DNA from: Isurus oxyrinchus
Lineage: Eukaryota
DNA length: 64,000 nt
Direction: 5' to 3'
Assembly (NCBI GenBank): GCA_026770705.1
Contig: JANJGN010000646.1
Span: 62,001 to 126,000, forward strand
The notes below the pieces were generated by a model. The model did no database searches and was not told the origin of the DNA. It saw only the letters and a program-made list of their open reading frames with translations. A program made the translations under genes and the position numbers. Shown piece by piece: positions 12,181 through 64,000 of this stretch; position 1 is the stretch's first letter, and the number at the start of each line of letters is the position of its first letter.

Positions 12181-12206
12181 GTGAGTTACTGCAAACTCCA
12201 ACATCA

Positions 12207-12272
<66 letters not shown>

Positions 12273-25145: not shown

Positions 25146-25292
25146 NNNNNNNNNNNNNNNNNNNNNNNNNNNNNNNNNNNNNNNNNNNNNNNNNNNNNNN
25201 NNNNNNNNNNNNNNNNNNNNNNNNNNNNNNNNNNNNNNNNNNNNNNNNNNNNNNNNNNNNNNNNNNNNNNNNNNNNNNNNNNNNNNNNNNNN
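25146..25292. other. Assembly gap (147 N)
   Basis: Run of N. Confidence 0.99.
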
Positions 25293-37700: not shown

Positions 37701-38345
37701 GTCTCATCAAGCATGTTACACAGGAACTGGAGTAGGCCCCTTCAGCCCATCAAGCTTGTTTCAAGAGAAGAGGTGGAAGCCCACTCAGCCCCTCGAGGCT
37801 TTTACACAAGAACAAGTGGAGGTCCACTCAGCCCCTCAACCCTGTTACACAGTAACAGGAGAACCATTTATTCCCTCAAGCCTGTTATATAGGAACAGGA
37901 GGAGGTCCATTCAGCCCCCTCGAGCCTGTTACACAGGAACAGGAGGAGGCCCATTCAGCCCCTCAAGCCTGTTACACAGGAACAGGAGGAGGCCCATTAA
38001 CCCCCTTTGAGCCTGTTACACAGGAACAGGAGGAGGCCATTCAGTCCCTCGAGCCTGTTACACAGGAACAGGAGGAGGTCCATTCAGCCCCCTCGAGCCT
38101 GTTACACAGGAACAGGAGGAGGCCCATTCAGTCCCAGGAGCCTGTTATACGGGAACAAGAGGAGGCCCATTCAGCCCCCTCGAGCCTGTTGCACAGGAAC
38201 AGGAGGAGGCCCATTCAGCCCCCTCGAGCCTGTTGCACAGGAACAGGAGGAGGCCCATTCATCTCCCTGAACATGTTACACAGGAACAGGAGGCCCATTC
38301 AGCCCCTTGCCCCTCTGACACAGGAACAGGAGGAGGCCCATTCAG
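28800..38345 (+). repeat. 43-bp minisatellite (acacaggaacaggaggaggcccattcagcccctcgagcctgtt)n, roughly 220 copies, with higher-order blocks
   Basis: Tandem units of 39-44 bp nested within a minus-strand 33-bp array (28260-28800 and 38345-38895). Confidence 0.97.
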
Positions 38346-39169
38346 CAGTCCCTCAGAACTGACACTCTGACAGTGCGGCACTCCCTCAGTACTGACAATC
38401 TGACAGTGCAGCACTCCCTCAGTACTGACCTTCCGACAGTGCAGCACTCCCTCAGTACTGACCCTCTGACAGTGCAGCACTCCCTCAGTACTGACCTTCC
38501 GACAGTGCAGCACTCCCTCAGTACTGACCGTCTGACAGTGCAGCACTCCCTCAGTACTGAACCTCTGACCGTGCAGCGCTTCCTCAGTACTGACCCTATG
38601 ACAGTGCAGCACTCACTCAGTACTGACCTTCTGACAGTGCAGCACTCCCTCAGTACTGACCCTCTGACAGTGCAGCACTCCCTCAGTACTGACCCTCTGA
38701 CAGTGCAGCCCTCTCTCAGTACTGACACTCTGACAGTACAGCCCTCTCTCAGTATTGACCATACGACAGTGCAGCATTCCCTCAGTACTGACCCTCTGAC
38801 AGTGCAGCACTGCCTCAGCACTGACCCTCTGACAGTGCAGCACTGCCTCAGTACTGACCCTCTGACAATGCAGCACTCCCTCAGCACTCCCTTACTGGGG
38901 AGAATCTGCCTGAGTTTTGAGCTGAAATCATGAGCAGGTCTTAAATCCTTCCGTATCAGAGAGAGAGAGAGTGTCTGAGAGAGAGAGAGAGTGAGAGACA
39001 GAGAGACTGTGTGAGAGAGAAAAAGAAATAGAGAGAGTGTGTGCGTGTATGAGGGAGAGTGTGTGTGTGTGTGAGAGAGAATGTGTGTGTGTGAGGGAGA
39101 GAGTGTGGGTGAGAGAGAGTGTGTGTGTGAGAGAGTGTGTGTGAGAGAGAATGTGTGTGTGAGAGAGAG

Positions 39170-40689: not shown

Positions 40690-41718
40690 CAGCACTCCCT
40701 CAGTACTGACCCTCCGACAGTGCAGCACTCCCTCAGTACTGATCTTCCAACAGTGCAGCACTCCCTCAGCACTCCCTCACTGGGGCGAGTCCATCCGCAT
40801 TTTGAGCTGAAACCTTGAGATGGTCTCAAAACCCCAACCTTCCATCTCGGAGAGAGAGAGTGCGTTTGTGTGAGAGAGAGAGACAATGTATGTGTGAGAG
40901 ACTGAGAGTGTGTATGTGTGAGAGAGCAAAAGAGAGTTAGAGTGTGTGTGCATGAGAGAGGGAGGTAGCTTGTGTGTGTGAGAGAGAGAGTGTGTGTGAG
41001 AGAAAGAGAACGTCTGTGAGAGTGAGAGAGAATTTATGTGTGAGAGAGAAAGATAGAGAGAATGTGCGTGTGAGATAGTGTGTGTGCAAAAGAGAGTGTG
41101 TGTCTGTGAGAGAGTGTTTGTGTATGTGAGAGTGTGTGTGTGAGATCGTGTGTGTGTGTGTGTGTTTGAGAAAGAGAATGTCTATGTGAGAGTGAGAGTG
41201 AGTTTATCTGTGAGAGATAAAGGGAATGAGAGAATGTGTGTGTGAGATAGTGTGTTTGTGAAAGAGCGTGTGTGTGATAGTGTGTTTGTGTATGTGAGAG
41301 TGTGTGTGTGAGATCGTGTGTGTGTGTGTTTGAGAGAGGGTGTGTGTGTTTGAGAGAGAGGGTGATTGTGCGTTTGAGAGGGAGTGAGAGAGAACATGTG
41401 TGTGAGAGAGAGTGTGTGCGTGAAAGAGAAAGTGTTTGTGCAAAAGAGTGTGTGTTTGAGAGTATGTGTGCATGTGTGAGTGTGCATGTGTGTGTGTGTG
41501 TGTGTGTGTGTGCATGTGTGAGTGTGCATCTGTGTGTGTGTGTGTGTGTGTGCATTCTGACTGAGCCGAGTTCACAGTTTCACACGTTGCTAGGGACCAC
41601 TTTTCCACCTCTCAGTCAGACTGTGTGTATCTGACAGCAGGTCAGGCAGAAATAGTCCAGAATGCGCTGTGGTTTTGTAGCATTGAAACAACAACATGAA
41701 CTAAATGAGTGCTGCACC
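40690..41718 (+). repeat. Direct duplicate of about 26010-26908 (third copy of the satellite/microsatellite cassette)
   Basis: Shared unique stretches such as ggggcgagtccatccgcattttgagctgaaa and cattctgactgagccgagttcacagtt. Confidence 0.85.
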
Positions 41719-41777
41719 ACTATCAGTGTGTGGCAGAGAATGAGCGTTGGAGGGATTTATAACCATCTCTGTAGAAC
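41719..41777 (+). pseudogene. 3' remnant of a gene B/D-type C2 exon
   Basis: actatcagtgtgtggcagagaatga..ggagggatttataaccatctctgtagaac|gtgagt. The 5' part and acceptor are replaced by the duplication, and there is a ~7-nt internal deletion. Confidence 0.85.
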
Positions 41778-41814
41778 GTGAGTTACACAGAATTGAACAT
41801 TCTCTTGTTGTTAG

Positions 41815-42850
41815 CTCATGGGATGTGGGCATTGTTGACAAGGCCAGAAATTATTGCCCATCTGTAACTGCCCCTTGAGAAGGTGGTGGTGTGTTGCCTT
41901 CTTTAAGCACTGCAGTCCATGTGTGTAGGTACACCCACAGTGCTGTTAGGGTGGGAGTTCCAGGATTTTGACCCAGAGACGGTGAAGGAACAGCCGATAT
42001 ATTTCCAAGTCCCAGGGCAGACCACCACCTCATGTTCACCTCCAAATCACACACCATACTGACTTGGAACTGTCTTGGTGGAAGAGGTTAAGGGTTTGGA
42101 AGGTGCTGTCGAAGGAGCCTTGGTGAGTTGTTGCAGCGCATCTTGTAGATGGTGCACACTGCTGCCATTGTGTGCCAGTGGTGGAGGGTATGAATGTTTA
42201 TGCTGGTGGATGGGCTGTCGATCAAACAAGCAGCTCCTGGATGGTGTCGAGCTTCTTGAGTGTTGTTGGAGCTGCACTTATCCAGCCAAGTGGAGATTAT
42301 TCCATCACACTCCTGACTTGTGCCTTGTCAATGGTGGACAGGCTTTGGGGGGTCAGGAGGTGAGTTACTCACCGCAGAGTTCCCAGCCTCTTACCCGCTC
42401 TTGTAGCCACATTATTTCCTGTTGCCGGGTTGTTGCCAGGGCCAATCGCCTTTGCTGTATCCAGTATCATCAGCTGATTCCTGATGTCACGTGGAGTCAA
42501 TCGAATTGTCTGAAAGCTGACATCTGTGATGCTGGGACCCTCTGGAGGAGGCCGAGATGGAGCATCCACTCAGCACTTCTGGCTGAACCTGGTTGCCAAT
42601 GCTTCAGCCTTGTCGTTTGCACTGATGTGCTGAGCTCCCCCATCATTAAGGATGGGGATATTTGTGGAGCATCCTCCTCCTGTTAGATCTTTAATTGTCC
42701 ATCACCATTCATGACTGGATGTGGCAGGACTGCAGAGCTTAGATCTGACCCGTTGGTTGTGGGATCGCTTTGCTCTGTCTATAGCATGTTGTTTCCGCTG
42801 TTTGGTGTGTATGTAGTCCTGTGTGTCACCTCAGCAGCTTGGCACCTCTG
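41815..42850 (-). mobile_element. CR1-clade LINE fragments
   Basis: Reverse complement of the family at 21.9-22.4 kb, plus an upstream ORF2 piece (LDTAKAIGPGNNPA). Confidence 0.75.
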
Positions 42851-43040
42851 TTATATGTGAATCCTCCTTATAGAAACCTGCATGTACATGGATATTATCA
42901 ATAAATATTACATAGATAAATGTTATTTGTATATACCTTTCATGCATAGACAATATCACTTCACAAGTTCAGAATTACTACATGTACATAGGGAACCATT
43001 CTCAAACTGTACCGGAGTCATTCATTGGCTGATTTTACAG

Positions 43041-43137
43041 GGCGAGATTCCAATGAATGGAAAGCAGGATTGCTTGGAGCTGGAATCTGTTTGAGTGTTG
43101 GACTGAGTGGATTCTTCATCTTCAAGTGTGTGAGAAA
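43041..43137 (+). CDS. Gene C: transmembrane exon (paralog of 14089-14185)
   Basis: ttttacag|...|gtcagt, 97 nt, phase 1-2. RDSNEWKAGLLGAGICLSVGLSGFFIFKCVRK. Confidence 0.8.
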
Positions 43138-43893
43138 GTCAGTGTGAAGGTTTAATTGGTTGTTTTTGAAAATGTTTTCTTCAACCTTCTCTCCTTATAG
43201 AAAGAATTTGCATTTCTATAGCACCTTTCACAACCCAAAACCCTTCACAGCCCCTGAAGAGCTTTGATGTTCAACCACTATTGAACATCTCATCCTACAC
43301 TCCCTGTTTGACAACTCAGTCCTGTAACTGGCAGTGTTGACCCGGACCATAAAATACCCTGTGACCCCTTGAGGATGTGAAAGGTGCTATATAAATGAAA
43401 ACCTTTCTTTCGTTAGTGCATGCAATCTCATTCCATTTTCCATGTTTCATTCACTCTCTCTTATCTCCACTAATGCTCTCCTCTCATTCTCTCTCTCATT
43501 CACTCTCTCTCTAATCTCCAATAATGCTCTCCTTCTCATTCTCTCTCTCATTCACTCTCTCTCAAATCTCCACTAATGCTCTCCTTCTCATTCTCTCTCT
43601 CGTCCTCTTACACATTGTTCAGTATCTCACATTTTTAAGGAGCGCTGAGCAACATCTGCTCCTTCAGAAGATCCACCTAAACATCTGGACTGAGCAGTGA
43701 ATTGAAACTCGCTCAACGACTGCTCAGCTTTACACAGGAATCACGTCACAGAGTCAGGACACAAAGGGTTAACAGTTTGTTTACAACACAACACTAAGGC
43801 CCTACATTTCAATGAAAGGGTTTTCACAATTGTTCCCCAATTCCTGATTTTGTCTCACAGAGACACATCAACCCTTTCTCATTAAATACACAG

Positions 43894-43978
43894 AGGCAGC
43901 AGCACAGGAAGAGGTCATTCAGCCCAAGCAGAGCGTGTGGGCAGTTCCTCCCCAGGCGAGCAGTCGGACAGGTCCTGG
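43894..43978 (+). CDS. Gene C: candidate phase 2-0 cytoplasmic exon (the same module is repeated at 48330 and 50542)
   Basis: acacag|A GGC...TGG|gtaagt, 85 nt, open. GSSTGRGHSAQAERVGSSSPGEQSDRSW. Confidence 0.5.
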
Positions 43979-44489
43979 GTAAGTAACGGAACGATTGGAA
44001 TTCACTTCCACCACCAACACCGTCCTTTGTTGATGTTGTGACTTTATAAAGACAGATTCCAATGATTGATGCCTTTGAAAGATTTCTACTGATTATTGAG
44101 ATCTGGGTGTGAGGCTCAAGTCTGTTGTACAGAACATCTTTCTGGTTAAATTATGCAGACAGGTTACACACAGTCTACGATTATATTCCCTCGGGTCTAG
44201 AAGATTAAGGAGTGATCTAACTGAGGGGTTCAAAATGATTAAACACTCGATAGGGTCGATAGAGAGAAGCTATTCCCTCGGGTGGGGGTGGGTGATGGGG
44301 GTCGGGCGAAGTCCAGAACAAGGGGGCTGGAACTTCAGATTGGAGCCAGGCCGTTCAGGGGTGATGTCAGGAAGCACTTCTTCACACAAAGGGGAGTGGA
44401 AATCTGGAACTCTCTCCCCAGTGATCAAACCCAACACCGAATACACATCATGTTGATAGTCACTCTGTCCATTTCCATCTCTATTACAG

Positions 44490-44594
44490 AAGAGAGGCGA
44501 GGGGAAAGCAGGAATCAAATCGAACCACCGTGTTGATGAATATCGAGGTCCTGTTTATGAAAACTGTGAGCGTGGTTGGGCTTTGAGGAATCAG
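44490..44594 (+). CDS. Gene C: cytoplasmic exon with a VYEN motif
   Basis: ctattacag|...CAG|gtgagt, 105 nt, phase 0-0. KRGEGKAGIKSNHRVDEYRGPVYENCERGWALRNQ. Confidence 0.6.
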
Positions 44595-44725
44595 GTGAGT
44601 CACACACCACAGGATCCCCAGCCTCTCAGCTGCTCCAGTAGCCTGGTTATTGATATGGCTGCTCCAGTCCTGTATCTGCAATGTTTTATACAGTCACTCC
44701 CAAACCCAACCAAACTCACACCCAA

Positions 44726-45897
44726 CCCCGTTCAGAATCAATAATCAAACCCCGATCAGAATCAATAATCAAACTCCGTTCAGTATCAATAATCAAACCC
44801 CGTTCAGTATCAATAATCAAACCCCGTTCAGTATCAATAATCAAACCCCGTTCAGAATCAATAATCAAACCCCGTTCAGAATCAATAATCACACCCCGTT
44901 CAGTATCAATAATCAAACACCGTTCAGAATCAACAATCAAACCCCATTCAGTATCAATAATCAAACCCTGTTCAGTATCAATAATCAAACCCCGTTCAGT
45001 ATCAATAATCAAACCCCGTTCAGTATCAATAATCAAACCACTTTCAGAATCAATAATCAAACCCCATTCAGTATCAATAATCAAACCCCGTTCAGTATCA
45101 ATAATCAAACCCCGTTCAGAATCAATAATCAAACCCCATTCAGAATCAATAATCAAACCCCGTTCAGTATCAATAATCAAACCCCGTTCAGAATCAATAT
45201 TCAAACCCCATTCAGTATCAATATTCAAACCCCGTTCAGTATCAATAATCAAACCCCGTTCAGAATCAATAATCAAACCCCGTTCAGAATTAATAATCAA
45301 ACCTCGTTCAGTATCAATAATCAAACCCCTTTCAGAATCAATAATCAAACCCCGTTCAGAATCAATAATCAAACCCCGTTCAGTATCAATAATCAAACCC
45401 CGTTCAGTATCAATAATCAAACCCTCTTCAGAATCAATTATCAAACCCCGTTCAGTATCAATAATCAAACCCCATTCACAATCAATAATCAAACCCCGTT
45501 CAGTATCAATAATCAAACCCTGTTCAGAATCAATAATCAAACCCCATTCAAAATCAATAATCAAACCCCATTCAGTATCAATAATCAAACCCCATTCAGA
45601 ATCAATAATCAAACCCCGTTCAGAATCAATAATCAAACCCCATTCACAATCAATAATCAAACCCCGTTCAGTATCAATAATCAAACCCTGTTCAGAATCA
45701 ATAATCAAACCCCATTCAGAATCAATAATCAAACCCCATTCAGTATCAATAATCAAACCCCGTTCAGAATCAATAATCAAACCCCATTCACAATCAATAA
45801 TCAAACCCCTTTCAGAATCAATAATCAAACCCCATTCACAATCAATAATCAAACCCCGTTCAGTATCAATAATCAAACCCTGTTCAGTATCAATAAT
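44726..45897 (+). repeat. 24-bp minisatellite (ccccgttcagaatcaataatcaaa)n, about 49 copies
   Basis: Highly homogeneous tandem array within an intron. Confidence 0.97.
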
Positions 45898-45995
45898 TAA
45901 TGTATCTACTGTGGGTGGAATTTTCGATTTGGATCAATAATACTAAACACTGATCACTCTGAATGTCACTCTGATCATTTCTGTTTCTATTACAG

Positions 45996-46112
45996 AAGAA
46001 AGATGAGAAGGATCTGGAAATGAAATCTAACCGCGGAGTCAATCCTGATACAGATGATGATCTTCACGCAAACTGTGATTTTGCCAAGGATTCTGTTTAT
46101 GGGAATTTATAA
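45996..46112 (+). CDS. Gene C: terminal exon ending SVYGNL*
   Basis: ctattacag|AAG, phase 0. KKDEKDLEMKSNRGVNPDTDDDLHANCDFAKDSVYGNL-stop; paralogous to 44490-44594. Confidence 0.65.
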   Translation, partial: KKDEKDLEMKSNRGVNPDTDDDLHANCDFAKDSVYGNL

Positions 46113-48200: not shown

Positions 48201-48270
48201 TCTTGGATTCGCAAAGGGTTAACAGTTTTCTAACTGTGAGAGGCAAAGTGTTGCTTTCTAACTTGGTACT

Positions 48271-48286
48271 AACCACTTCCTCATTT
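48271..48286 (-). promoter_or_regulatory. PU.1/Ets site (AAATGAGGAAGT) overlapping a Runx-like AACCAC, upstream of gene D unit 1
   Basis: aaccacttcctcattt about 45 bp upstream of the 48330 exon. The Ets part is conserved at 50487-50498. Confidence 0.5.
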
Positions 48287-48329
48287 TGTCTCACAGAGAC
48301 ACATCAACCCTTTCTAATTAAATACACAG

Positions 48330-48414
48330 AGGGAGCAGCACAGGAAGAGGTCATTCAGCCCAAGCAGAGCGTGTGGGCAGTTCCTCCCCAGGCGAGCAGT
48401 CGGACAGGTCCTGG
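48330..48414 (+). other. Gene D unit 1: putative 5' UTR exon
   Basis: Ends TGG|gtaagt, about 410 bp upstream of the leader acceptor. Confidence 0.5.
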
Positions 48415-48857
48415 GTAAGTAACGGAACGATTGGAATTCACTTCCACCACCAACACCGTCCTTTGTTGATGTTGTGACTTTATAAAGACAGATTCCAATG
48501 ATTGATGCCTTTGAAAGATTTCTACTGATTATTGAGATCTGGGTGTGAGGCTCAAGTCTGTTGTACAGAATATCTTTCTAGCTCAAGGGATGAGGGCAGA
48601 GCAGGGACATGAGCTTTGGGGTGTCCTGAGCAGGTGAAAGGCGATATAGAAATGCAGGTCCTTCATTGTTTTACTTTCTTAGAGCCTTGTAACTCACTGC
48701 AGAGCAACTATCATCCCACAGAGAATGAAATTAGTCTGTGAAGACATTGTCTAAAAGCAGTTCTGATCTCTCGAGAGGTGTCGGACAAGAGGTGAGGTCT
48801 CGTTAACTCATTTCTCTTTCACAGCTTGAGAACCAATGAAATACCTGGGAGTGGACA

Positions 48858-48897
48858 ATGATCAGGAAATCTTACTTCCTCCTGTCACTTCTCCAAG
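48858..48897 (+). CDS. Gene D: leader exon 1 (whole exon 48825-48897)
   Basis: tctttcacag acceptor, MIRKSYFLLSLLQ, AAG|gtaata, phase 1. Completes a signal peptide with VGLS-QEW from either V exon. Confidence 0.8.
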
Positions 48898-49685
48898 GTA
48901 ATATCATTGTCAGCTCGGACAGATTTATGGCTAATCATCTTTGTAAAACATAATTCTTATTGAGCTGTGATTGGGAACTGATTCAGCAGTGAACCAGTGT
49001 ACAACCTCACACCAAGTCCCATTCACCCATCACCCCTGTGCTCACTGATATACACTGACTCCCTGTCTGACAGCAGAATTGGAGGAGAGCAGAGGACTTT
49101 GAGGTTTGCATGGTTGGAGGAGAAAGTGATTGGAGAAGAGGAATGGAGGGAATGGAAATTGAGGATGAGCGTCTTAAACTCGAGGCTCTGCTGGTCTGGG
49201 AGCCAGTGCAGGTCAGCGAGTGGCGGAGGGTGTGAGGTGCTGAGTCGAGAAACAGTGATAAATACTGGGGGATGAAGTCTATCCTGATGCTTGGACGCCG
49301 ACAGCAAAGGAATGAAATTTGTGTCTTTTCCTGATTTTAATCAGAATTTCCCATGAAGACAACTCAGCAGCTCCTAGAATAGACAGGCTGTTCAGTGTCA
49401 CACTTCCTGTCCATTCTCACCATGCTAGATACTTCAATAAGGGAGCAAGATAACTGAAAGAGAGAAGGAAGGTAAAGCTGTCCGTGTGTAAAGGTGTCAA
49501 TATTCAAATTGTATATTTGTCTTTCTCTCGACACATGCAGAGCTCAGGCTAGAGGCACTTTGTTAGTGTGTTTCACAGTGTCTGCTGGAGTAGGGTCAGT
49601 GCTGAGCTTGGGGACAAGTCAGTCTACAATGCTGCATCGGAATCAACAATACAACAATATGGGGTTTGGATCAGAAATAATCCCT

Positions 49686-49893
49686 TAGACAATGAGGATC
49701 CAAAGAGATTCCTTGGACAATGAGGATCCAAAGAGATTCCTTAAACAATGAGGATCCAAAGAGATTCCTGAAACAATGAGGATCCAAAAAGATTCCTTAG
49801 ACAATGAGGATCCAAAGAGATTCCTCAGACAATGAGGATCCAAAGAGATTACTTAGACAATGAGGATCCAAAGAGATTCCTGAGACAATGAAC
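49686..49893 (+). repeat. 28-bp tandem repeat, about 7 copies
   Basis: agacaatgaggatccaaagagattcctt repeated. Confidence 0.92.
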
Positions 49894-50049
49894 ATACAAA
49901 GTGCACCAATCAGATTGAATCAGATTAGCCAATCAGCTGTGTTGAAGAGCAGACAGGAATGTTAGGCTAATTAGTGATTCATGACGGTGATAATGGGGGG
50001 AGTTCTGAGGGCTCCTAATCCATTGTCCTGTCTTGTAAATCAGCACCTT

Positions 50050-50362
50050 AATACTGACCCTCCAACAGTGCAGCACTCCCTCAGTACTGATCCTCCAACA
50101 TTGCAGCACTCCCTGATTAATGTCCCTCTGACAGTGCAGCACTCCCTCAGTACTGACCCTCAAACAGTGGAGATCTCCCTCAGTACTGACCTTACAATAG
50201 TGCAACACTCGCTCAGTAATGACCATCCGACAGTGCAGCACTTGCTCAGTACTGACACTGGGGAGTTTCAGTCTACTCTGTGGGGCAGACGTCCCCTGAA
50301 TGGGGTCTTGAATCCCACAACGTTCTGACCTCCTGAATTTGGCTGTGAAACCCACTGACCCA
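50050..50362 (-). mobile_element. DeuSINE-like 5' head plus about six 33-bp units
   Basis: The minus strand reads ggtcagtgggt..gtcagaacgttgtgggattcaagacccca (tRNA-like A/B boxes) and then runs into cagtactgag repeats. Confidence 0.65.
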
Positions 50363-50541
50363 CAGGAGAAATTCCTGGTCAATGACTGTCCACCTGTGAG
50401 CAGAAATATCACCACAGGGTCAGGACACAAAGGGTTAACAGTTCACCAACATCTCAAAACATGAGCTGCTCTGTCACTTTGATCCAACTTCCTCATTTTG
50501 TCTCAAAGTGTCACATCAACCCTTTCTAATTAAATACACAG

Positions 50542-50626
50542 AGGAAGCAGCACAGGAAGAGGTCATTCAGCCCAAGCAGAGCGCGTGGGCAGTTCCTCCC
50601 CAGGCGAGCAGTCGGACAGGTCCTGG
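50542..50626 (+). other. Gene D unit 2: putative 5' UTR exon
   Basis: Copy of 48330-48414 with the same donor. Confidence 0.5.
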
Positions 50627-51076
50627 GTAAGTAACGGAACGATTGGAATTCACTTCCACCACCAACACCGTCCTTTGTTGATGTTGTGACTTTATAAAGA
50701 CAGATTCCAATGATTGATGCCTTTGAAAGATTTCTACTGATTATTGAGATCTGGGTGTGAGGCTCAAGTCTGTTGTACAGAACATCTTTCTAGCTCAAGG
50801 GATGAGGGAAGTGCAGAGACATGAGCTTTGGGATATCCTGAGGTGGTGAAAGGCGATATAGAAATGCAAGTCCTTCATTGATTTATTTTTTTAAAGCTTT
50901 TTCACTCTCTGCAGAGCACCTATCATCCCACAGAGAACCGAATTAGTCTGTGAAGACATTGTCTAAAAGCAGTTCTGATCTCTCGACAGCTGTCGGACAA
51001 GAGGTGAGGTCTCATTAACTCCTTTCTCTTTCACAGTTTGAGAGTCAGAAGCTAAAGGAATATCTGGGAGTGGACA

Positions 51077-51116
51077 ATGATCGGGAAATCTTACTTCCTC
51101 CTGTCACTTCTCCAAG
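51077..51116 (+). CDS. Gene D: leader exon 2 (whole exon 51037-51116)
   Basis: MIGKSYFLLSLLQ, AAG|gtaatt, phase 1. Confidence 0.8.
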
Positions 51117-52189
51117 GTAATTTCATCGTCAACTTGGACAGACTTATGGCTAATAGAATTTGTAAAAGAACATTCTTATTGAGCTCTGATAGGGAACCGA
51201 TTCAGCAGTGAGCCAGTGTACAAACTCACACCAAGTCCCATTCACCCATCACCCCTGTGCTCACTGATATACACTGACTCCCTGTCTGACAGCAGAACTG
51301 CAGGACAGCAGAGACCTCAAAGGGTTTCAGGGCTGGAGGAGGTGACAGTGATAGGGAGTGGAGAGGGAGGATGGAGGGATAAGGAATCAATGAAGAGAAT
51401 TTGAAAATTGAGTCATTGCTGGACTGGGAGCCAGTGTAGGTCAGCGAGTGACAGGGGAGCGACCGGCTGAATAGAGAAGCAGGGATAAAAACTGGGGGAT
51501 GAAGTCTATCCTGATGCAAGCACTCCGATATCAATGCCCTGAAATTTTTCTCTCTTGCTGATTTTCATCAGAATTTCCCATGAAGACAACACAGAAGCTC
51601 TTAGATTAGACAGGCAGTTCAGCGTCACACTTCCTGTCCCTTCTCACCATGCTAAAAAATTCGATAAGATAGCAAGATAACTGATAGAGAGAAGGGAGGC
51701 AAAGCTGTCTGTGTGTAAAACTGTCAAATATTCTGAGTTATCATGATTGTTTCTGATCTGCTGCAGAGTTTATATTTCATTGAAACTTATCACTTTGCAG
51801 CTCAGAGAGAGACCATTGACTCACTGCCTGAAAGGGCGGTGGAAGCAGATTCAACAGGAACTTTCAGAAGGGGAACTGGATAAATACTTGAAGGGGACAT
51901 TTTGCAGGGCTGTGGAGGAGAGAGCAGAGGTGAGAGTGGGACTAACTGGACAGATCTTTCAAAGGCCCAGCACAGGCTCGATGGGCCAAATGGCTTCATT
52001 CTGTTCCGAATCATTCTACAATCCGATAAATTAAGTCCCTTTTCAATAACTCTTCAGGCTCCTGCTGCAGGAATGGATCTTTGAGAAGGGCAGGGAACAA
52101 GCGGTTTCTCATATCATGTTCATATTTATTGACAATTACATCAGTGAAAGGAACTGTTGAATATTTGAGTCTCTAAAGTGTGGATTTAA

Positions 52190-55100
52190 CCTTCTGGTAC
52201 ACCCAGATCTTGTGCTGGTTACCTTGTCTGGAGGTGTCTTTAACTGCTCACCGTGATCTGTGGGATTGTCACCCTTGGATGGTGATCCTGATTTCATGTG
52301 GGATCTGCTCCTCGATGGAATAGGAGCGGGAATGGATCTGAGTTATCCTCGGTTCCACCTCACCGCTGTGCCCTTGTGTGTTTGACTCCATAGGCCCTTG
52401 GTTCTGAACAAATCCTTGTCACCTCGGCTGGTGATCATGAACCTTCTGTGCGATCCTGGATGTGCACTTGTCCCAACTGTAAACTTGGCAACTCTGCACC
52501 TCCATTTTTATCATGAACATTCCTTATCTTCTCTTGTAGTTTTAAAAGTTGCCCTCTGGTTTCTGAGAGAGTAGAATGGGTAAGAGTAGCGAAATTGGTT
52601 ACTACTGGCACACCAAACATGATCTCTGTCAGTGATGGAATAAGGTGAGGTGATGGTGTAGTGGTATTGTTGCTGGACGAGTAATTCAGAGACCCAGGGT
52701 AATGTCCTGAGAATATGGGTTCAAATCCGGCCATAATAGATGATGGAATTTGAATTTAATAAAAATATGAAATTCAAAGTCTAGTGATGACCACAAAACC
52801 ATTGTTAGAAATCCCACCTGGCTCACCAGTGCCCTTTAGGGAACAAAATTATCTGGCAGACATGTGACTCCAGACTCCACGTCAATGTGGTTGACTCTTA
52901 CATTAGGGATGGGTAATAAATCCTGGCCTAGCCAGTGACTCCCACATCCCATGAATGAATTTAACAAAGTTGCAGTTGTAGGTGTTGATCTCAGATGTAA
53001 CATTGCAATGTGTGGATCTTGCTTGGCCTGTCTACATTTGAGAATTAGGGATTTCACTGTGTGAATCATTCATTCAGCTAGGCTGTTAGATCTGGGGTAA
53101 TGAGGAGAAGAAGTAGTGTGATTGATATTCCAGATTATCTGTAATCATGTCCCTAGGTTCACCAAAGAAACTGAAAATAGTGCTTCGAGTGTGTGCAGAA
53201 GTTGTGCTTGGTGTGTTGTGCTATTTTTGAATAACGGGATATCTGGTAAAGCTGTCAACAATGACGATGAAGTCAGTGACATGGACATGAAATGATTCAG
53301 ATTTTGGACTAAGAATGGGCAGGAATTTCCTGTGGAATCAGTGGTTCTTTGACAAGCCTCTTGACAAGCCTTGTACTTCCCTACAAATGATTTCAAGCTC
53401 ATTGTTCATACCCGGCCAGTGACTGTATCTCTTGTGAGTCTCCTTGTCTGATCTGTGTCCATGTGTGAGGGATGAAGTTGTTGAAGAATATAGGATCACA
53501 AATGTTCCGGTATGATGCCCTGCCTGCCTTTAAAAATGGTTCCCTGGGAGATGCCTCGCTTATGCCGATCAGGTCAAATTGAATCAGGCCACCCTTCAAT
53601 GATATTTCCACAGTTCCTGTAGAATTTTTCACTGTTCCCTCTTGTAGCTGCTGTCATTTCTGTTGTGCTAAATATACTGGATCAATTGACAGACTTGCAT
53701 TCTCCTGCAGGTGTAATGTTGCAGCTACCTTGAAACTGCCAATACTGTTGAAACTTTCTGCATATTTCAATGTTATGGCATGAACTGAGGTGATGGGGTA
53801 GTTTCTGAGGTTGACCCATGTGAGGTCTGACAGATTCCATGGATAGTCACTAGTGTGAGGTCACCGCATGCCGGTAGATTGTAATTGCTCAGCGTTTAGT
53901 CTCCACAATGTAGAACATCTGTGACACCCAGGAGGATTGATTGTACTTGCACTCCAGGACTATGGATTCTGCACATGGAGTTGGTGAAGTGTTGTACACA
54001 GCAGTAGGTTTCCCCATGGACTTCCATATCCTTGGATACATGTCTTTGAAAATTTGCTGGGGTGGGCTGGGGGAGGGGAATGTTGGCACTTGCCCCTGTG
54101 TCAATCTTGGCCAATAAAGGGGAGGTAGCAACTTTCTCAGGGCAGATAATTGGAATCTTGGCCAATAGTGCAGGTGATATGACGGCATCTGTTCTCCATG
54201 AGATTGATGGTGTAAAAGGTGTGAAATTGTTCAACAATTGCACAATACGTTGAGCACAAGTGCTGCACAAACTCCAGGCTGGGGTTTTCTGGCCTGGTCA
54301 TGGTAGGACCTGCCTTGGGAGATTGGGACAAATATAAATCCAATGGCTTTCGGCTGGTCCATACAATCCTGGCAGTGGGTGGGGCCAGAAAATTCCACCC
54401 CTATGGGACATTTTCAGTTTATTTGATGTGCTGAGAGATATCATTAAGGACAACAATCCACAATTTATTGGCAAGCCACGTCAGGATATGTGTGAGAGGT
54501 GGAATATTGATCACCGCTCCTCGTCTCATCGTGCACATCATCGCCATTTCCTGGTTTGCCAGTCACCACATGTATATGTTCCTGATGGGATAGCGGATGG
54601 TCATTCTTATTGCTTGAAGTTTCCCCACTGTGTAGGGTTATTTTGGATCAGCTCATGGCTCTTTGTAGCTGCATCAGCCTTTGCTCTAGTGCCCTGCCGC
54701 TGTCAATGGCCCTTTCTGCCACAAGCCTTGCAGGATTGGTGGAAAGCTGGGCATTTCCTTGGTGCCTGCAGAAGGCCACACCTTCCACACGTCTCACTAG
54801 GTTTGGATGTTCTAGTGAGTGTGTCAACAATTGATGTTGTACAGAGGACCTGTAATCTTCGTTGACCTGTGAGGATCCCTTCGTATTTATGTCCATCCTT
54901 GAGTAGCTCTTCAATGCTATAGGTTTTGGTGTTATCTAGCAGAGCTTTCTGGAAGGCATCCATGGGAGTGGATGCGATCACCAACTCAACAACTCTGTTT
55001 GCAGTCTCTGTGTTTGAAACCACAGTGCGTACCCTTTTCTCTACATCGGCTGATGAAGTGGTCTATGGATTTTGTAGGCTGATGAAATGACATAAACTCT

Positions 55101-56000
55101 AGTTGATGAATATGGAGTTTCACCTGATTCTGAACCTGTCTTCCAATATCGTCCATATCTATTGGGGATCCTTTCGCTCTTCTGCTGTTAATCCTGACGT
55201 GTTCAGCCTGTGTAGACCTTCATTCCCAATCACGAGGTGAATTTTTATGGCTTGCTCGTCTGGTTCAGTCACACCTGAATCAGGAAACCAGAGCTCTGTA
55301 CGCTGTTTAAACATTCTGAATTCAGATAGTCGGTCAGCTACATCCCAGTTCAAACTGGGGAATTTCGAGGACATTCTGACAATATTCCTTTGACCTTCCT
55401 TCTCCTACAGGACCTGGGATGAGTGTCGCTTTAGCCCCTTTCGTGTGCTTTTCCGAAGCTCTGCCCACGAAGACGGGTTGTGGCAGGAACACACCACGGA
55501 GTAATGGAGTCTTTGTTTTTTATTCAATTTGCTGTTCAGCCATCTCGAAGCCGCCCGTTATAATCACTAACTTCTCTGGGCTGATTTTTATAATGGTTTT
55601 TGTGTGTTTGACTCTCCCTCGCTCACTATCGATCCAGCCCACACCCTGGTCACTCGCCTTCCCTGACTGAGCTAACCCGCTGCTGGTCCTGGCGATACAC
55701 ACTGTCCCACTCACTGACCTACAGGCCGTCCGCTGTAATCTCACCACGAGGGATCCGTCTGCTCCCCAGCTCTTTACTTGAGCTCTTTCCCGTCACTGTG
55801 TCTTCAAAGGTTTCCTGAGCAGTCAGTACACTGCGATTTCAACCCTCTCTGATGCTGTGTCTCTGTTGTGGTCTGACCAAAGCGTCGAGGGTCGTCTCAT
55901 GTCATGTAGCTCGATCTAAGGCTGTTCACCACGTCATACCTGTACTGAATCTTGCTGCCAGAATGTTTGGCCACCGCTGATCACCATGTTGTGTTTTTAT
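52190..56000 (-). mobile_element. Degenerate Gypsy LTR retrotransposon (gag, protease, integrase; no RT recognisable)
   Basis: gag FRMFKQRTELWF, zinc knuckle CGRCG..CPAFHQSCKACGRKGH, protease KIDTGASAN, integrase HTTSSPHYPRSNSLAE..IHTVK. Many stops and frameshifts. Confidence 0.85.
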
Positions 56001-58088
56001 AATGATATAAAGGCACCAGCCACTGATACAGAATTGGGTAAATACATTGTGGGTTCATTTATTTAGAACAGGGACATGAGAACAGATATACAAGGATAGA
56101 AAGCTGGGAGACACCTGCAGCCAAACTGTGTGAGCTGTGTTCTGCTCACAGGCCAAAGTGAAACTTGGACTGGATGGTGTTACCATCCCAGCTGATGTTA
56201 CTACTGGGCAAGTCAGATCCCAGGGTGGAACTCAGCTTGATAGGTCCTAACTTTTATTTTTTATTTAGGAATGTGGAGTGCGGCTACTGAACAGAGTCAC
56301 AGGAGTCATCTGATGAACTTCTAACAAAAGAATAAAACATTTATTAAACTAGGAAAGACAAACTATATTATATTACTCCTTCACCCAGACCTATACATTT
56401 ACAGATTCATAAGTAGAACACAAGTTACGATAACTATCTTATACTCTCATGTTCACACTAAGTACACAGTCCATGTAAACCAATAGACGACCTGTGGTCA
56501 GGGACACCACATTCTGAAAGCAAGTGGCAGAGCCCACTTGAAACAAATTCTTTATCTCATCTGTCCCCAGATGCTTGTTACACTGTGAGCCAACCAGTCT
56601 CACTGAAAAGCTTCTTTCATATGAGAGTTTCCAATCTCCACTCTCCAAGAACTCTCTTTGGAATCTCCTCCAACATGACACTTTCACTCAGACACCTTCC
56701 ACAAGGGTCCACTTTCACTATTTCAAACTCTCCTTCCCATGTTCCTGCCCCCTGGATCGCCACGTGCATTCAGCCTTCCTTCCACGCCCTGTCTCTCCAA
56801 TGCTCAGCCGTGTCAATGGAACACCATGGCTTCACATGGCCGTAGTAATGAGTCACCAACCTGTGGTGTCTCCTAGGATCTTCTGGCTTCTCACAAGCCT
56901 ATTTTGCTTTAGGCCTGTGTCCTGCTGCTTCTTCCTTTATGTTTGGAGCCTTCTTCTGCTCCTCACTCTTAACTTCATTTTACAGGGCCTTTTCCAGATT
57001 TGACTAGAAGGTTTTCTTGGGCCCTTTCTCCTGTCAAACTCGATAGTTTTGGCTTCTTCTTTACTTTGGGACTGACTATCTGTCCCACTCCTTTGCTGCT
57101 TCTCCTGGCAACTCCTTTCAACAGAACTGAAAGTACTGTTTTTCTCGGTCTCTGTGAGTCCCTCCCTCTGCATCACTGTTGCTAGGCAACAGCACAGTTT
57201 CTTACGCCTTGTATTTGTTTTGACTTCCCTTCAACAGTCATAAAAGCTCAATGGAATGCTGGCTTCTTTTTAACTCAAGTTCCCCCTTTTCTCAACACCC
57301 AAATACAGAAATACAAACTAAACTTGAACTTAAAGATAGACCTTTTGCCTAACACACACAAATACACATAGAACTTACTTAAGCGAACACCAGTTCCTAA
57401 AAATAACATGACACACTTCCCCTCGAGTGATGTCATGCTGCTGTCCCTGAAAGGCATATTACAACAGTGTTATCACTTGGCAGGTGATGTGTGCCAGGCA
57501 GACCAAGTCCCTGAGAGAAACCTGGTCACACTATCATAATGATTTTGCAATTGGTATTTATTATGAGATGTGTGCACTTAATCCAGAAGCAATAACTCCA
57601 CCAATACCTTTAGAGATTTAAAACAATAAATTAACATATTTGTCATCAAAATAAAGGATTTCAAGCACATACGTAACTACAAGACTGCTATCATAACTCC
57701 TAAAATTCCTAATTAACCTGACTCCCAGTTACAGTCCCTTAAAGGCAACAGACCAAAAATAGATGTTAGATTTAAAACAAAATCAGCAAGTTAACCCAAT
57801 GCCCCGGACAGTGGAATTCCAAATGCATTGTCCCCAACTTCAGTTCTGTTGGAGAACAGGCTTCTGCACAAACAGGGTCCTGAGGACAATGAACCAATGT
57901 AGAATGAACTTTTCCGCTTTTGTGTCCAGGATTCTCTTCCATCTGGTGTGATACCTTGTGGAGTTCCATGTGTGTCCTGTAGATGGTCCACACTGCAGCC
58001 ACTGTGCCCCAGTGATGGAGGGGGTGGATATCGAGTCTAGTGGATCAACAAAACATCCAGAGTTAAATATTGATATTTCTCTCCCCAG

Positions 58089-58466
58089 TTGGATTGTCAC
58101 AAGAGTGGAAAGGTGATACTCCACGAGAGGTGACAGCGCAGGAAGGTTTGTGTGTACAGATTCCATGTCATTACAGTTATCCATCAGATTTGGTAAAGAA
58201 ACCACATGTCGGAATCTGGAAAATGAGAAGGTACATACGGAACAAATGGTCTAAATGGTCTATAGCCTTTCACTCCAAGGGACACAGTCACGAGTTACCA
58301 CGGTTCCGCCATCGGACCCGGCTGTCTGGAGACCTGAAAGATGGCGACTGTTCCCTGATTATAAACAACATCAGACGGGAAGATGCAGGACCTTATTTTT
58401 TCACGATAAAATTTGGCAATCGTCCGAGCCATAACGTTTCCCCTGTAACCCAGCTTCAGGTTTCTG
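58089..58466 (+). CDS. Gene D: V-set exon 1 (Siglec-type, essential Arg replaced by Thr)
   Basis: ctccccag|...|gtaagt, 378 nt, phase 1-1. LCVQIPCHYSYP...GDLKDGDCSLIINNIRREDAGPYFFTIK. Confidence 0.88.
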
Positions 58467-58734
58467 GTAAGTGCTGTGTTATAATTACTCACCAATTCAC
58501 ATCCAACACTCAATGGGAAATAATAGTGTTTGATTTGCTTGTTTTTTGGCCGTGTTAACCAGCGTCACTATTTTTAATGATTTGTCTATTTCTGCTCCCA
58601 GATCCATGAGCTTATTGTGTGTGATTGAATCCACATCATAGCTGTAATGTAAACCGAGCTGAGGGGTGATGACACCTCCCCCCTGAGTGAAGTATCTCCT
58701 CCCCACTACACCTTTCACCCCTCACACTGTCCGT

Positions 58735-59720
58735 GTAAACCCCCGTCCCATCTCCAGCCTCTCTTTCCCCTCCAAAGTCCTTGAACGTGTTTCCATCTCC
58801 CGAATCCGTTCCCATCTTTCCCGGATCTCCATGTTTGAATCCCTCCAATCAGGTTCCCACCCCAGCCACTGTGCTGAAACAGCTCTTATCAAGGTCACAA
58901 ATGGCATCCTGTGTGACTGTGACAAAGGTCAACTTTCCCTCCTCGTCCTTCTCGATCTGTCTGCAGCCTTTGACACGCTCGACCACACCATCCTCCTCCA
59001 ACACCTCTCCACTGTCGTCCAGCTGGGTGGGACTGCTCTCCCCTGGCTCCATTCTTATCCATCTCATCGTAGCCAGAGAATCACTTGCAATGGCTTTGCA
59101 GCATCATCTGAACAGTGTTAGTTTTCACCTGTCCACTGAGGATGCCCAGCTCTACCTCACCACCACCTCTCTCGACTCCTCCACTGCTGCTTATTTTCAG
59201 GCTGCTTATCCGACATCCAGTACTGGATGGGCAGAAATTCCCTCCAATTAAATATTGGAAAGACTGAAGCCATTGTCTTCATTCCCCGCTCCAAACTCTG
59301 TTCCCTCGCTACCAACTCCATTCCTCTCCCTGACAGCTCTCTGAGATTGAAGCCAATCTGTTCACAGCTTTGTTGTCCCATTTGATCCTGAGATGAGCTT
59401 CCGGCCTCATATCTGCGCCCTCACTAACACCGTCTATTTCCACCTCCGTAACATCGCACGACATCACCCTGTCTCAGCTCATCTGCTGCTGAAACCCTCA
59501 TCCACACCTTCATTACCTCCAGACTCGACTGTTCCAACACACGCTCTACACTCCATAAACTTGAGGCCATCCAAATCTGCTGACCACGTCCTTACTCACA
59601 CCAAGTCCCGTTCCCTTATCACCCGCTCTGCTCGATGACTGAGACTGGCTCCTGGTCAAGCAAAGTCTCAATGTCCAAATTTTCATCTTTGTTTCCTCAT
59701 TATCCCTGTAATCTCCTCGT
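58735..59720 (+). mobile_element. L2-clade LINE RT fragment
   Basis: RPISSLSFPSKVLER..ETALIKVTNGIL..LLVLLDLSAAFDTLDH. Confidence 0.85.
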
Positions 59721-60200
59721 CCTCCTCCAGTATCTACAATCATCCCATTCTCTGTAACCTCTTCAATTCTCTACCACTTCCCTATAGCTGTAAATTCATC
59801 CTGCCAAAACAAACCTACCAATCTCTGCAACCTCCTCCAGCCACTACAAACCTCCCTATTTCTGTAACTTCCTCCTGCCCCTAAAAGCTTCCATATCTCT
59901 GTAGCCTGCTCCAGTCCTGACAACTTTCCCTGCCCCTGTAACCTGCCCCAGTCACTACAACCCTCCCGACCTCTGCAAACTCCTCCAGACCCTACACTCT
60001 CCCAATCTCTCTTAACTTTTCCAGCCGCTACAACCCTCCCTATCTCTGTAACTCCTCCAATCACTACAACCCTCACTGTCTCTGTAATCTCCTCCAGACC
60101 CTACACTCTCCCAATCTCTCTTAACTTTTTCAGACCGTACAACACTTCCTATCTCTGTAACCTCCTCCAGTCACTCCAACCATATGAGGTCTCTGCGCTC
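59720..60200 (+). repeat. Diverged ~36-bp tandem repeat within the L2 3' region
   Basis: ctacaaccctccctatctctgtaacctcctccag-like units. Confidence 0.75.
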
Positions 60201-60339
60201 CTCCAATCCAAGCCTCTTGACCATCCCCCGATCCCAAAACTCCAACATCGGCAGTTGTGCCTTCAGCCTTGAGTCTTATTTTTGAGGGAATGTACAACAT
60301 CCTTAGATTTCTGACCAAAATGTAATTTGATTATTTTTA

Positions 60340-60760
60340 TTGAGCCAATGCCAAGCCCTGATACCGAGCGAGAGCCTCCTCATTTGCTGAGTTTAAGGTG
60401 ATGAGTCAGCCCCTTAGTCCGTAGAGGGGATTCTCCTCGGTAATGTGCAGCCTTGTTTGTGTCTCTCCACAAGCGCATGAGGGGTTTGTACAGAGGCTGC
60501 CGTGCTGGAGGGGGTCTGCACAGGGGTCCTGGCCTGTCCTGAGCCGGTTTTAGCAAGGACCATTCTGGCCATGGCAGCTGAAAGCCAGCCATTGGACAGA
60601 CGGGGCCTGTCACAAGGAGCCTGTTAGTCACTCCCCACCGTGTCTCCAGTGCTCGGATCCAGACCATGTTGGCTGGTGGATCTGGCTCAGGAAGGGTCCT
60701 CCCCATGGGACCCCCAGATGGAAGGTGGGTCGAGCGGGTCAGTCACTTGCATGTTTATTC
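60340..60760 (-). mobile_element. Ingi/Vingi-like LINE C-terminal fragment
   Basis: GFQLPWPEWSLL followed by a frameshifted NRLRTGQG-like segment. Confidence 0.4.
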
Positions 60761-60794
60761 TGCAGCTTTAATATTTTAAGAAGGTAAGAATGTA

Positions 60795-61520
60795 GGAACA
60801 TAAGAAATAGGGACAGGAGCAGGCCATTCGGCCCCTCCAGCCTGCTCTCACTGATCTGGTTGTGGCCTTAACTCCATTTTCCTGCCTGTCCCCCAAACCC
60901 TTGACTCCCTTGTCGATCAAAAACCTGCCTCACTCAGCCTTGAGTCTATTCAATGGCCCAGCCTCCACTGCTCTCTGGGGAAGAGAATTCCACAGGCTAG
61001 CGCCCCTCTGAGAGAGGAAATTCCTCCTCATCTCAGTCTTAAATGGGAGAGTCCTCATTCCGAAACTGTGCTCCCTGGTTCTAGATTCCCCCACGAGGGG
61101 GAAACATCCTCCCAGCATCCACCCTGTCAAGCCCCCTCGGAATCGGATATGTTTCAATAAGGTCACCCCTCATTCTTCTAAACTCCAATGGATACAGGCC
61201 CAACCTGCTCAACATTTCCTCACAGGATAAACCCTTTAATCCCAGGAATCAGCCCAGTGAAGCTTCTCTGAACTGCCTGTACACAATGATCCTGTTACAT
61301 TCTCACCAACGCCCTGTGCAGCTGTTGCAAGACTTCCCTCCTTTTATACTCCATCCCTTTGCAATAAAGGCCAACATTCCACTTGCCTTCCTCATTCCGT
61401 GGTGTTCCTGAATGCTGACTTTCTGTGATTCATGTACAAGGACACCCAGATCCCTCTGTACTGCATTCTGCAGCCTCTCTCCATTTAAATAATATTCTGT
61501 TTTTCTATTCATCCTGCCAA
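60795..61520 (-). mobile_element. CR1-like LINE 3' end
   Basis: QRDLGVLVHESQK and MRRNFLSQR..WNSLPQRAVEA. The 3' UTR reads acataagaaatagggacaggagcaggccattcggcccctccagcctg on the plus strand. Confidence 0.88.
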
Positions 61521-61641
61521 AATAATTTGTTGCCATTCTCCTCAGTATTAACCATCCTCCAAATTCTGTCTCATCTGTAAATATCGGGTTCAGTGGATCC
61601 ACAAAACATCCAGAGATAAATATTGAGATTTCTCTCCACAG

Positions 61642-62007
61642 TTGGACTGTCACAAGAGTGGAAAGGTGACACTCCACGAGAGGTGACAGCGCAGGAAGAT
61701 TCCTGTGTACAGATTCCATGTCATTACAGTTATCCATCGTGTCTGGAAAACCAACCACGAGTTGGAGTCTGGTTTAATAATGAGGAACGGAGAACATTGT
61801 CTATAGCCTTTCACTCCAAGGATCACAGTCACGAGTTACCACAGTTCCACCATCGGACCCGGCTGTCTGGAGACCTGAAAGATGGCGACTGTTCTCTGAT
61901 TATAAACAACATCAGACGGGAAGATGCAGGACCTTATTTTTTCAGAATAGAATTTGACAATGCTCCGAGCTATAACTATTACCCTGTAACCCAGCTTCAT
62001 GTTTCTG
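61642..62007 (+). CDS. Gene D: V-set exon 2 (canonical Siglec V with the essential Arg)
   Basis: ctccacag|...|gtaagt, 366 nt. SCVQIPC...GDCSL...DAGPYFFRIEFDNAPSYNYY has the F-strand Arg and G-strand aromatics. Confidence 0.93.
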
Positions 62008-62745
62008 GTAAGTGCTGTGTTATAATTACTCAACATTTCACATTCAACACTCAATGGGAAATAACACAAACTATGATGTTTACATATTAACACAAAACAC
62101 AGCTTATTATAACACACTGTCTGATTCTCAATAACCTGGTGATAGCTTCCAGTTCAGTCCTAAAGCAACCTCTAATACTCACTTTAATATCAATGATTAA
62201 ATATATTGACTGTGTCCATCAATGTTATCAGGTTATCCACTCCCATCGATCTCTCTAATCCTAATCTCTAATGTCTCGAAGCCTGACATATCGACAGAAG
62301 AAAGATTCACATTTCTATAGCACCTTTCACCACCTCAGAACGTACCAAATCACTTCACAGCCAATGAGCTGATTCCTGAATTGTAGTTACTGTTGTAATG
62401 TGAGAAACACAGCAGCCAATTTGCGCACAGCAAGCTCCCACAAATTGCAAAGTAATAAATGGCCCAGATCGCTGAGTGAATGATGGGGTAGTGCACTCCA
62501 AACTCTGGTCTGCTCCTCCACCCTCACCCACTATTATCAGTTCAAGTGTCTCGGAGTGAACGTGTGTTAAGCTGCGAGACAGAAACACCAAAGTGTCAAA
62601 GCAGGAAATGCTCTCCTGATCATTGTAACCTCTCAGTTCTGATATCATCCTTGTAAAAGTGCTTTCTCTTGTGGGACTGTGGTTTCTATTTGAACTGATG
62701 CTTCACGTTATATTTCTCTAAAAGGATCCATTCTCTGTCTGTTAG

Positions 62746-63042
62746 ATTTCACAGATAAACCCACGATATTCCCTGCTGAAATTATTGCAGGAAAGCGTGT
62801 GGATGTAAGCTGCACCTTCAACACAACGTGCAATGGAACAGCAGCACCTGTCTTAACCTGGGACACTCCCACTGACGTACCTGGATCAGTCTCAAACACT
62901 GTAACTCAGCATGGTGTCACTCTGACCTATACTTCTGTTCTGACCCTGATCCCATCACTCAAACACCACGGACACACTCTCAGCTGCAGAGTGAGATATC
63001 CATCTGTTTCATCGGAGCGGACCCTCGTACTAACTGTGCAAG
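62746..63042 (+). CDS. Gene D: Siglec domain-2 C2 exon
   Basis: ctgttag|...CAAG|gtaaga, 297 nt. DFTDKPTI...VSCTFNTTCNGTAAPVLTW...LTLIPSLKHHGHTLSC. Confidence 0.92.
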
Positions 63043-63164
63043 GTAAGAACGGACACCCTTCCATCTACATTAGCTAGAAAGCTCTACATAGTACACTGCA
63101 AGATCCCACAACTGCATTGTGTTTAGCAACAAATCAATAGTCTTTAACTGATACAAATTCGCCT

Positions 63165-63786: not shown

Positions 63787-64000
63787 ATGCACCACAGAAT
63801 CTCTCAATTAATTTTCTTGATATGATTAACGCTTCATCGATCAATATAATTGAGGGGAATTCTGCAGTGATAATCTGCTCTGTCGAGAGCTTCCCAGCTT
63901 CTAACCTGACGTGGCGACATCTTAATGTCCCAATGAACAGAACAAGTTCCAACAATGAGCTGTGGTTGGTGATTCCTCACGTTACATCCAGGGACACTGG
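63787..64000 (+). CDS. Gene D: C2 exon of the gene-B type (cut by the window end)
   Basis: tttatag|ATGCACCACAG. DAPQNLSINFLDMINASSINIIEGNSAVIICSVESFPASNLTW, near-identical to the gene B exons. Confidence 0.9.

Follow-up and report, generated by a model that had tools for sequence, protein, structure and literature searches.

Siglecs carry one N-terminal, arginine-bearing V-set domain that is bonded to domain 2, and they form families of about 15 genes. This arrangement of a single V domain bonded to domain 2 has been described for MAG, in which the C37-C165 disulfide joins the first two immunoglobulin (Ig) domains (PMC5150538), and for a model of Siglec-6, in which C46-C172 joins the first cysteine of the V domain to a cysteine of domain 2 (PMC10122656). 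In primates, Siglec-12 is built with two V-set domains, and its human form has lost the arginine (PMC6288428, PMC13358205); the residue is essential, and human Siglec-XII, with R122C, does not bind sialic acid (PMC6288428). Here we describe gene D, a Siglec-like gene with two V exons at the end of a 64,000-nucleotide stretch of Isurus oxyrinchus contig JANJGN010000646.1 (positions 62,001 to 126,000; the whole stretch is called the window, and coordinates are in window numbering and on the plus strand unless stated). With a probability of roughly 0.7, gene D encodes a Siglec-like receptor in which the two V exons, V1 and V2, are spliced mostly in tandem, with a tail resembling an immunoreceptor tyrosine-based inhibitory motif (ITIM) tail and a layout like that of Siglec-12.

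Analysis of gene D showed two leader units, two intact phase 1-1 V exons and a single domain-2 exon, in that order. Alignment and splice ends bore out this layout as an initial annotation had described it, along with the residues it named at the arginine site of each V domain and its statement that all leader-V, V-V and V-C2 joins keep the reading frame. The features, including those downstream of the window end, are:

48275-48329, plus strand: unit 1 upstream region, with an Ets/PU.1-like motif (ACTTCCTC at 48275) and the E1a acceptor; putative promoter
48330-48414, plus strand: E1a, an 85-nucleotide 5' exon bounded by an AG acceptor and a GT donor of its own
48825-48897, plus strand: leader exon L1, ATG at 48858, MIRKSYFLLSLLQ, phase 1 donor, AG/GT ends
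50487-50541, plus strand: unit 2 upstream region, carrying the Ets/PU.1-like motif of unit 1 (at 50487)
50542-50626, plus strand: E1b, second 85-nucleotide 5' exon; joint 50626 to 51041 in runs X2 and X3
51037-51116, plus strand: leader exon L2, ATG at 51077, MIGKSYFLLSLLQ, phase 1 donor, AG/GT ends; joints to V1-type and V2-like starts
58089-58466, plus strand: V1, V-set exon with a long basic/aromatic C-C' loop, phase 1-1, stop-free, AG/GT ends
61642-62007, plus strand: V2, V-set exon, phase 1-1, stop-free, AG/GT ends
62746-63042, plus strand: C2a, Siglec domain 2 (C2-set); the B-C-loop cysteine in VSCTFNTTC aligns with MAG VSCMVPDNC
63787-64000, extending beyond the window to 64068, plus strand: C2b
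65333-65429, downstream of the window end, plus strand: transmembrane (TM) exon
66238-66322, downstream of the window end, plus strand: E1 copy, a coding cytoplasmic exon
66834-66938 and from 67908, downstream of the window end, plus strand: two tail exons

The two V exons, whose lengths are both multiples of 3, are 74% identical in protein and 86.9% identical in DNA. At the Siglec arginine site V1 has Thr (ACG, 58403-58405; local sequence YFFTIK..SHNVS) and V2 has Arg (AGA, 61944-61946; YFFRIE..SYNYY). The first B-strand cysteine of V1 is at 58151-58153 and its B-C loop is free of cysteine; V2 has an additional cysteine in that loop (TGT, 61740-61742). Both domains scored above the cut-off for Pfam V-set and Ig_CD22 and belong with the Siglec V-set domains. 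The best PDB matches of V2 were Siglec-5, Siglec-8, CD33, Siglec-10, sialoadhesin and MAG (E values of 3e-14 to 3e-12 for Siglec-5, Siglec-8 and CD33), and its YFFR aligned with the YFFR of Siglec-5, Siglec-8 and CD33. C2a matched domain 2 of MAG and CD33, with nectin-4 giving the top score. The Siglec cysteine pattern, as read from aligned sequence, was present as CxxxxC and DCSL in both V exons and as the B-C-loop cysteine that C2a shares with MAG domain 2.

Tandem joining of the exons gives a predicted frame of 588 amino acids, leader-V1-V2-C2-C2-TM-tail. The frame has the Siglec-type features of a type I transmembrane protein with C2-set domains and a tyrosine-motif tail, the motifs being VYENC, LYANC and, at the end, SVYGNL, which matches the ITIM consensus SxYxxL. 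An N-terminal arginine is missing from the tandem form, in which V1 has Thr at the site; the arginine lies in the inner V2 and would be N-terminal only in a form that skips V1. Since its N-terminal V1 lacks the arginine, gene D is classed as Siglec-like, a putative rather than demonstrated sialic acid binder.

The contrast between V1 and V2 followed a rule of position across the family. In a main sample of 1.254 Mb, made up of the window and of fetched stretches selected in part for their D-like or multi-V genes, V exons occurred in 27 single, 22 double and 3 triple runs, with one four-exon run, one five-exon run and two seven-exon runs. The arginine was missing from 20 of the 28 intact first V exons in this sample (Thr in 13, Ser in 4, Met in 2, Gly in 1) and was kept in all 43 intact later exons and all 13 intact single exons. 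The additional B-C-loop cysteine (YSYPSC) showed the converse distribution: 43/43 later, 0/28 first and 3/13 single intact exons. A second sample, 600 kb at round-number offsets on three further cluster contigs, held mostly single-V genes, two clear double-V genes and three runs cut at block edges; in its double-V genes the cysteine was in both later exons and in neither first exon. Among models from other sharks and rays, counted without domains that did not match the pattern, 37 of 45 later domains had it, compared with 0 of 27 first domains and 1 of 76 single ones. Long-loop V1-type exons stood only first in a run in the sample from this genome, with none at later positions, and a basking shark model has such domains at internal positions.

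The acceptors of the V exons also varied with position. Thirty-five of 43 later V acceptors read GAGAT (for example 61617-61641), and all 28 first and 13 single acceptors read GATAT or another sequence. GAGAT introduces an additional AG some 16 bases ahead of the acceptor, and the variant may be a lineage marker or a splicing feature.

The additional cysteine of V2 lies 7 residues after the B-strand cysteine, and that of domain 2 lies 6 residues after. By analogy with the V to domain 2 bond of Siglecs, the loop cysteine of V2 would pair with the first cysteine of V1; supplying this partner, V2 appears built to sit beneath another V domain. The AlphaFold model of a white shark two-V homologue (P0135) has three Ig domains, with a mean predicted local distance difference test score (pLDDT) of 69.5, a predicted template modelling score of 0.47 and a pLDDT below 50 in the V-V linker, and MAG, CD33 and Siglec-10 were among the general multi-Ig matches in its fold search.

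RNA evidence came from Logan contigs of runs presumed to be RNA, of which the four informative ones were all from one sample. The start of V1 is diagnostic, as all 16 such starts belong to first exons, and V1-type exons were found spliced in these contigs. GT..AG joints from a leader to a V1-type start were found in run X3 (depth 300) and in X6; the initial annotation had considered that V1 might be a dead duplicate, and these junctions show V1-type exons in use. A 124-nucleotide X6 contig was identical to V1 of gene D and to two of its copies. The V2 to C2a joint was present in all four runs, and E1 to leader and leader to E1 joints were also seen.

Joining of one V exon to another was seen in paralogues. 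A 137-nucleotide X6 contig consisted of 106 nucleotides of a Thr-type V1, with five differences from gene D and none listed at the Thr codon, joined to an EP-type V start. The contig has no exact match among the fetched exons and so derives from another paralogue or allele. Two X3 contigs also had a V end joined to an EP-type start. EP starts were non-first in 24 of 25 cases, and the V1-EP junction word is absent from the genome. The tandem-V, Siglec-12-like product that the initial annotation had envisaged thus gained a junction from a paralogue in the Thr clade of V1. In a comparison focused on V1, none of the contigs ran from a V1 end into C2a or from a leader into an EP start, with the limit that contigs cannot prove absence; a coverage gap in the middle of V1 in X3 was left unused for the same reason. 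The comparison with the whole gene listed 15 of 94 joints, and the V1 to C2a joint of gene D was not one of those listed.

Taken as a mechanism, transcription would start from leader unit 2, with unit 1 redundant, and splicing would yield mainly L-V1-V2-C2a-C2b-TM-tail. The product would be an inhibitory-type receptor with an outer V domain that lacks the arginine and is probably bonded to an arginine-bearing inner V domain. V1 would no longer bind sialic acid in the usual way and could act as an outer spacer or bind other ligands, and V2 would hold the remaining canonical sialic acid site. Minor V skipping may occur alongside the tandem form.

The two leader units (48275-49505 and 50487-51733) were 87.7% identical across 1248 alignment columns. 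The twin promoters and leaders of the initial annotation hold as far as the leader units go; the promoters are putative and are proposed from spliced RNA and from the Ets/PU.1-like motif. The signal peptides of L1 and L2 differ at one residue, both leaders lie 5' of both V exons, and no E1 or leader was found between the V1 and V2 exons. The choice of leader therefore cannot pick a V domain or change the mature protein, which speaks against both leader-V coupling and the proposal that promoter choice gives binding and non-binding isoforms.

Ten of 49 units had twin leaders (7 of the 26 multi-V units and 3 of the 22 single-V units); four of six near-identical D-like copies had them and two had a single leader. 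The L1 intron resembles the introns of single-V genes to about +830-860, and the match then ends, the pattern that a paralogue lost by deletion would leave behind. The L1 unit is thus likely to be a leftover of duplication, the 5' remnant of an upstream paralogue. The leader exon of L1 has an out-of-frame upstream ATG 22 nucleotides ahead of the main ATG. With L1-E1b-L2 splicing the frame would meet a stop ahead of the L2 ATG, and another upstream open reading frame (ORF) would overlap that ATG, so protein from unit 1 would come mainly from direct L1 to V splicing, which is indistinguishable in the RNA-run contigs. The backward leader to E1 joint is read as L1 to E1b splicing in twin-leader genes, with back-splicing as an alternative.

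E1 has further copies in the region. The 85-nucleotide exon is used a second time downstream of the TM exon, where it codes for part of the cytoplasmic region (approximately 43894-43978, and 66238-66322, compared with 48330-48414), and the copies are 96-98% identical over 307 bases including flanks. The copy behind the TM exon is required to hold the tyrosine motifs of the tail in frame. A TM to E1 loose end was seen in run X1 and in basking shark model P0009. Four tandem E1-leader units stand ahead of one single-V gene (G000:C150:314400-320300).

Several observations weigh against the tandem reading of gene D. Its own V1 to V2 joint (58466 to 61642) was likewise missing from the 15 joints listed out of 94, tandem splicing was seen only in paralogues with an EP-type V2, and all positive RNA came from the one sample, run X11 giving no match and X15 being probably DNA. 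In white shark, one model (P0134, isoform X4) is without the first V domain. The position rule has exceptions: 8 of the 45 later domains in database models lack the additional cysteine, of the 12 intact single-V genes headed by a leader in the second sample 2 have it, and a long-loop, arginine-bearing V exon stands alone ahead of C2a at C189:479130 in that sample. Such single-V genes suggest that neither skipped form is structurally barred. The exon counts are not independent: many exons are segmental duplicates, and the earliest blocks were picked because they held D-like or multi-V genes. The ratio of nonsynonymous to synonymous changes (pN/pS) was 1.37 in the Thr/Met first exons (loops 2.38, framework 0.96, at 3% silent divergence), compared with 0.51 in later and 0.61 in single V exons, and the V1 value fits relaxed selection as well as it fits diversification.

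The skipped white shark model and the single-V genes with an additional cysteine or a long-loop V exon would also fit a regulated cassette, in which V1, V2 or both are included according to cell type and the outermost domain is switched between arginine-less and arginine-bearing, with no role for the leaders. Every join keeps the reading frame, the 84 intact V donors are all GTAAGT, and the additional upstream AG in 35 of 43 later V acceptors could change acceptor use. GT..AG joints from a leader to a V2-like start were present as well (367 in X1, 44 in X6 and 6 in X3); they were considered as proof of V1 skipping and rejected, since 21 of 23 complete single-V exons have the same start as V2 and the joints cannot be assigned to gene D. 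The diagnostic EP start occurred only in V to V junctions, and V exon types are tied to position; together with the failure to find V1 to C2 or leader to EP junctions in contigs, which cannot establish absence, this goes against the cassette by splice choice that the initial annotation had proposed. We regard a regulated cassette as unlikely, and tandem splicing of V1 and V2 is preferred.

The same pN/pS values, which in the Thr/Met V1 clade are close to 1 or exceed it, could instead indicate that V1 and L1 are decaying duplicates and that only L2 and V2 matter. The L1 unit does resemble a truncated gene end with a read-through transcript containing upstream ORFs, and one D-like V1 is broken (C1343:54447). 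However, 28 of 29 first V exons were intact, compared with 13 of 27 single V exons, V1-type exons were spliced to leaders and to V2, and one contig of 124 nucleotides matched V1 of gene D exactly. Over the tree of Thr/Met V1 exons, about 3.1 stop and about 0.7 splice-site hits (about 3.8 in all) would be expected with no selection and with gene conversion ignored, and 1 of 15 exons was broken, which lends modest support to these exons having been kept intact. Decay of L1 alone is quite plausible; decay of V1 with it is very unlikely. A misassembly, or neighbouring genes collapsed into one, would be conceivable in a region this rich in repeats and segmental duplications, where both haplotypes may have been assembled and counts inflated. 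However, V1 and V2, like the two leader units, are only about 87% identical, the layout is found on five contigs and is modelled in other species, and V-V junctions occur in RNA-run contigs. The gene D stretch has no N (the only N runs of the window are at 23828-23988 and 25146-25292), and a V1-V2 pair about 3.5 kb apart is present on four other contigs, so the pair is neither chance nor a local mis-join. We consider an artefact highly improbable, and the tandem reading of gene D is kept.

Other Siglec-like sequence was found in the window. A distant Siglec-like gene on the minus strand (5088-4780, 2637-2371 and 1793-1593) is about 30% identical to the family, and its V domain has Tyr at the arginine site (YYFYVD). 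Two 3' gene halves lie on the plus strand, at 10866-20207 (three C2 exons, TM and tail) and 41700-46109 (TM and tail), and no matching leader or V exon was found upstream of them within the window. Beside these halves are large tandem arrays (a 33-mer at 15358-19772 and a 43-mer at 28798-38346) and an inverted duplication (7484-9004/26742-28260).

The closest named relatives of V2 were white shark and basking shark models, at 88-90% identity, which identifies gene D as a shark gene. Elasmobranch models named 'Siglec-12-like', 'Siglec-13-like' and 'Siglec-10-like' at NCBI belong to the same family; the names are automatic only. Exact-pattern counts across the genome gave 707 V-exon cores, 475 domain-2 starts and 57 Thr/Met-type V sites, of which two are on unrelated contigs and are likely to be chance matches; the counts are lower bounds for their patterns and include pseudogenes and possibly both haplotypes. 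Multi-V genes are a sizeable minority of the cluster. Among 115 database hits, 32 had 2-7 V domains (one of them two fused V-C units), and the multi-V hits came from lamniform, carcharhiniform and orectolobiform sharks, a sawshark and rays.

Genes at the extremes of the family were also observed. Two genes (G000:C52:1871359-1886648 and 3539123-3554416) have seven intact tandem V exons at a spacing of about 2.3 kb, several of them near-identical, and the first has Ser at the arginine site. Fourteen of the 27 single-V exons were broken or partial, and many units end after domain 2 with no TM exon (for example on G000:C646 and C52), which indicates rapid birth and death of genes. At least three different TM/tail types are joined to the same ectodomain among related models.

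A search of mainly open-access articles turned up no description of the Siglec expansion in sharks, of the tandem V arrays or of the position rule; for sharks or cartilaginous fish it gave only a passing mention in the whale shark genome paper (PMC8455134). The family is a large and apparently undescribed expansion of innate receptors. A broader proposal, which we consider doubtful, is that hundreds of shark Siglec-like genes form disulfide-linked stacks of V domains, in which outer domains have repeatedly shed the arginine and diversified their loops for other, possibly pathogen, ligands, inner domains still bind sialic acid, and skipping of the outer domain switches between the two modes.

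Several known systems place related exons ahead of shared downstream exons, as gene D does. In protocadherin and UGT1A clusters each variable exon has its own promoter, and the alternative exons of Dscam are mutually exclusive. A promoter-choice cluster is not what was found in gene D, where both leader units are upstream of V1 and no E1 or leader separates V1 from V2. Nor does the family behave as a mutually exclusive array, since V-V junctions were present in X3 and X6 contigs of paralogues, though they were not seen for the pair of gene D. A scan of 57000-63100 on both strands for the heptamer-spacer-nonamer recombination signal sequence of V(D)J loci gave no match, and the V exons are complete spliced exons.

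The closest likeness is to the Siglecs. Gene D shares sequence matches in V2 and C2a and a tyrosine-motif tail with CD33-related Siglecs, MAG (Siglec-4) and Siglec-1, and the shark family differs from these in its extra V domains, which carry the domain-2-like cysteine, and in an outermost V domain that often lacks the arginine. Gene D itself is one ordinary member, and the importance lies in the scale of the family and in the position rule, and the family offers a natural way to test if sialic acid can be bound by a V domain away from the N-terminus, and what arginine-less outer domains do. Siglec-12 shows the same order of two V-set domains ahead of C2-set domains, with the arginine lost in human Siglec-XII. 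The second V domain of Siglec-12 is described as lacking the arginine and as having its own signal sequence and a short splice form, whereas the inner V domain of gene D keeps the arginine. Convergence is a more likely source of the shared two-V layout than orthology, and what is one gene in primates is represented in sharks by hundreds of units with one to seven V exons.

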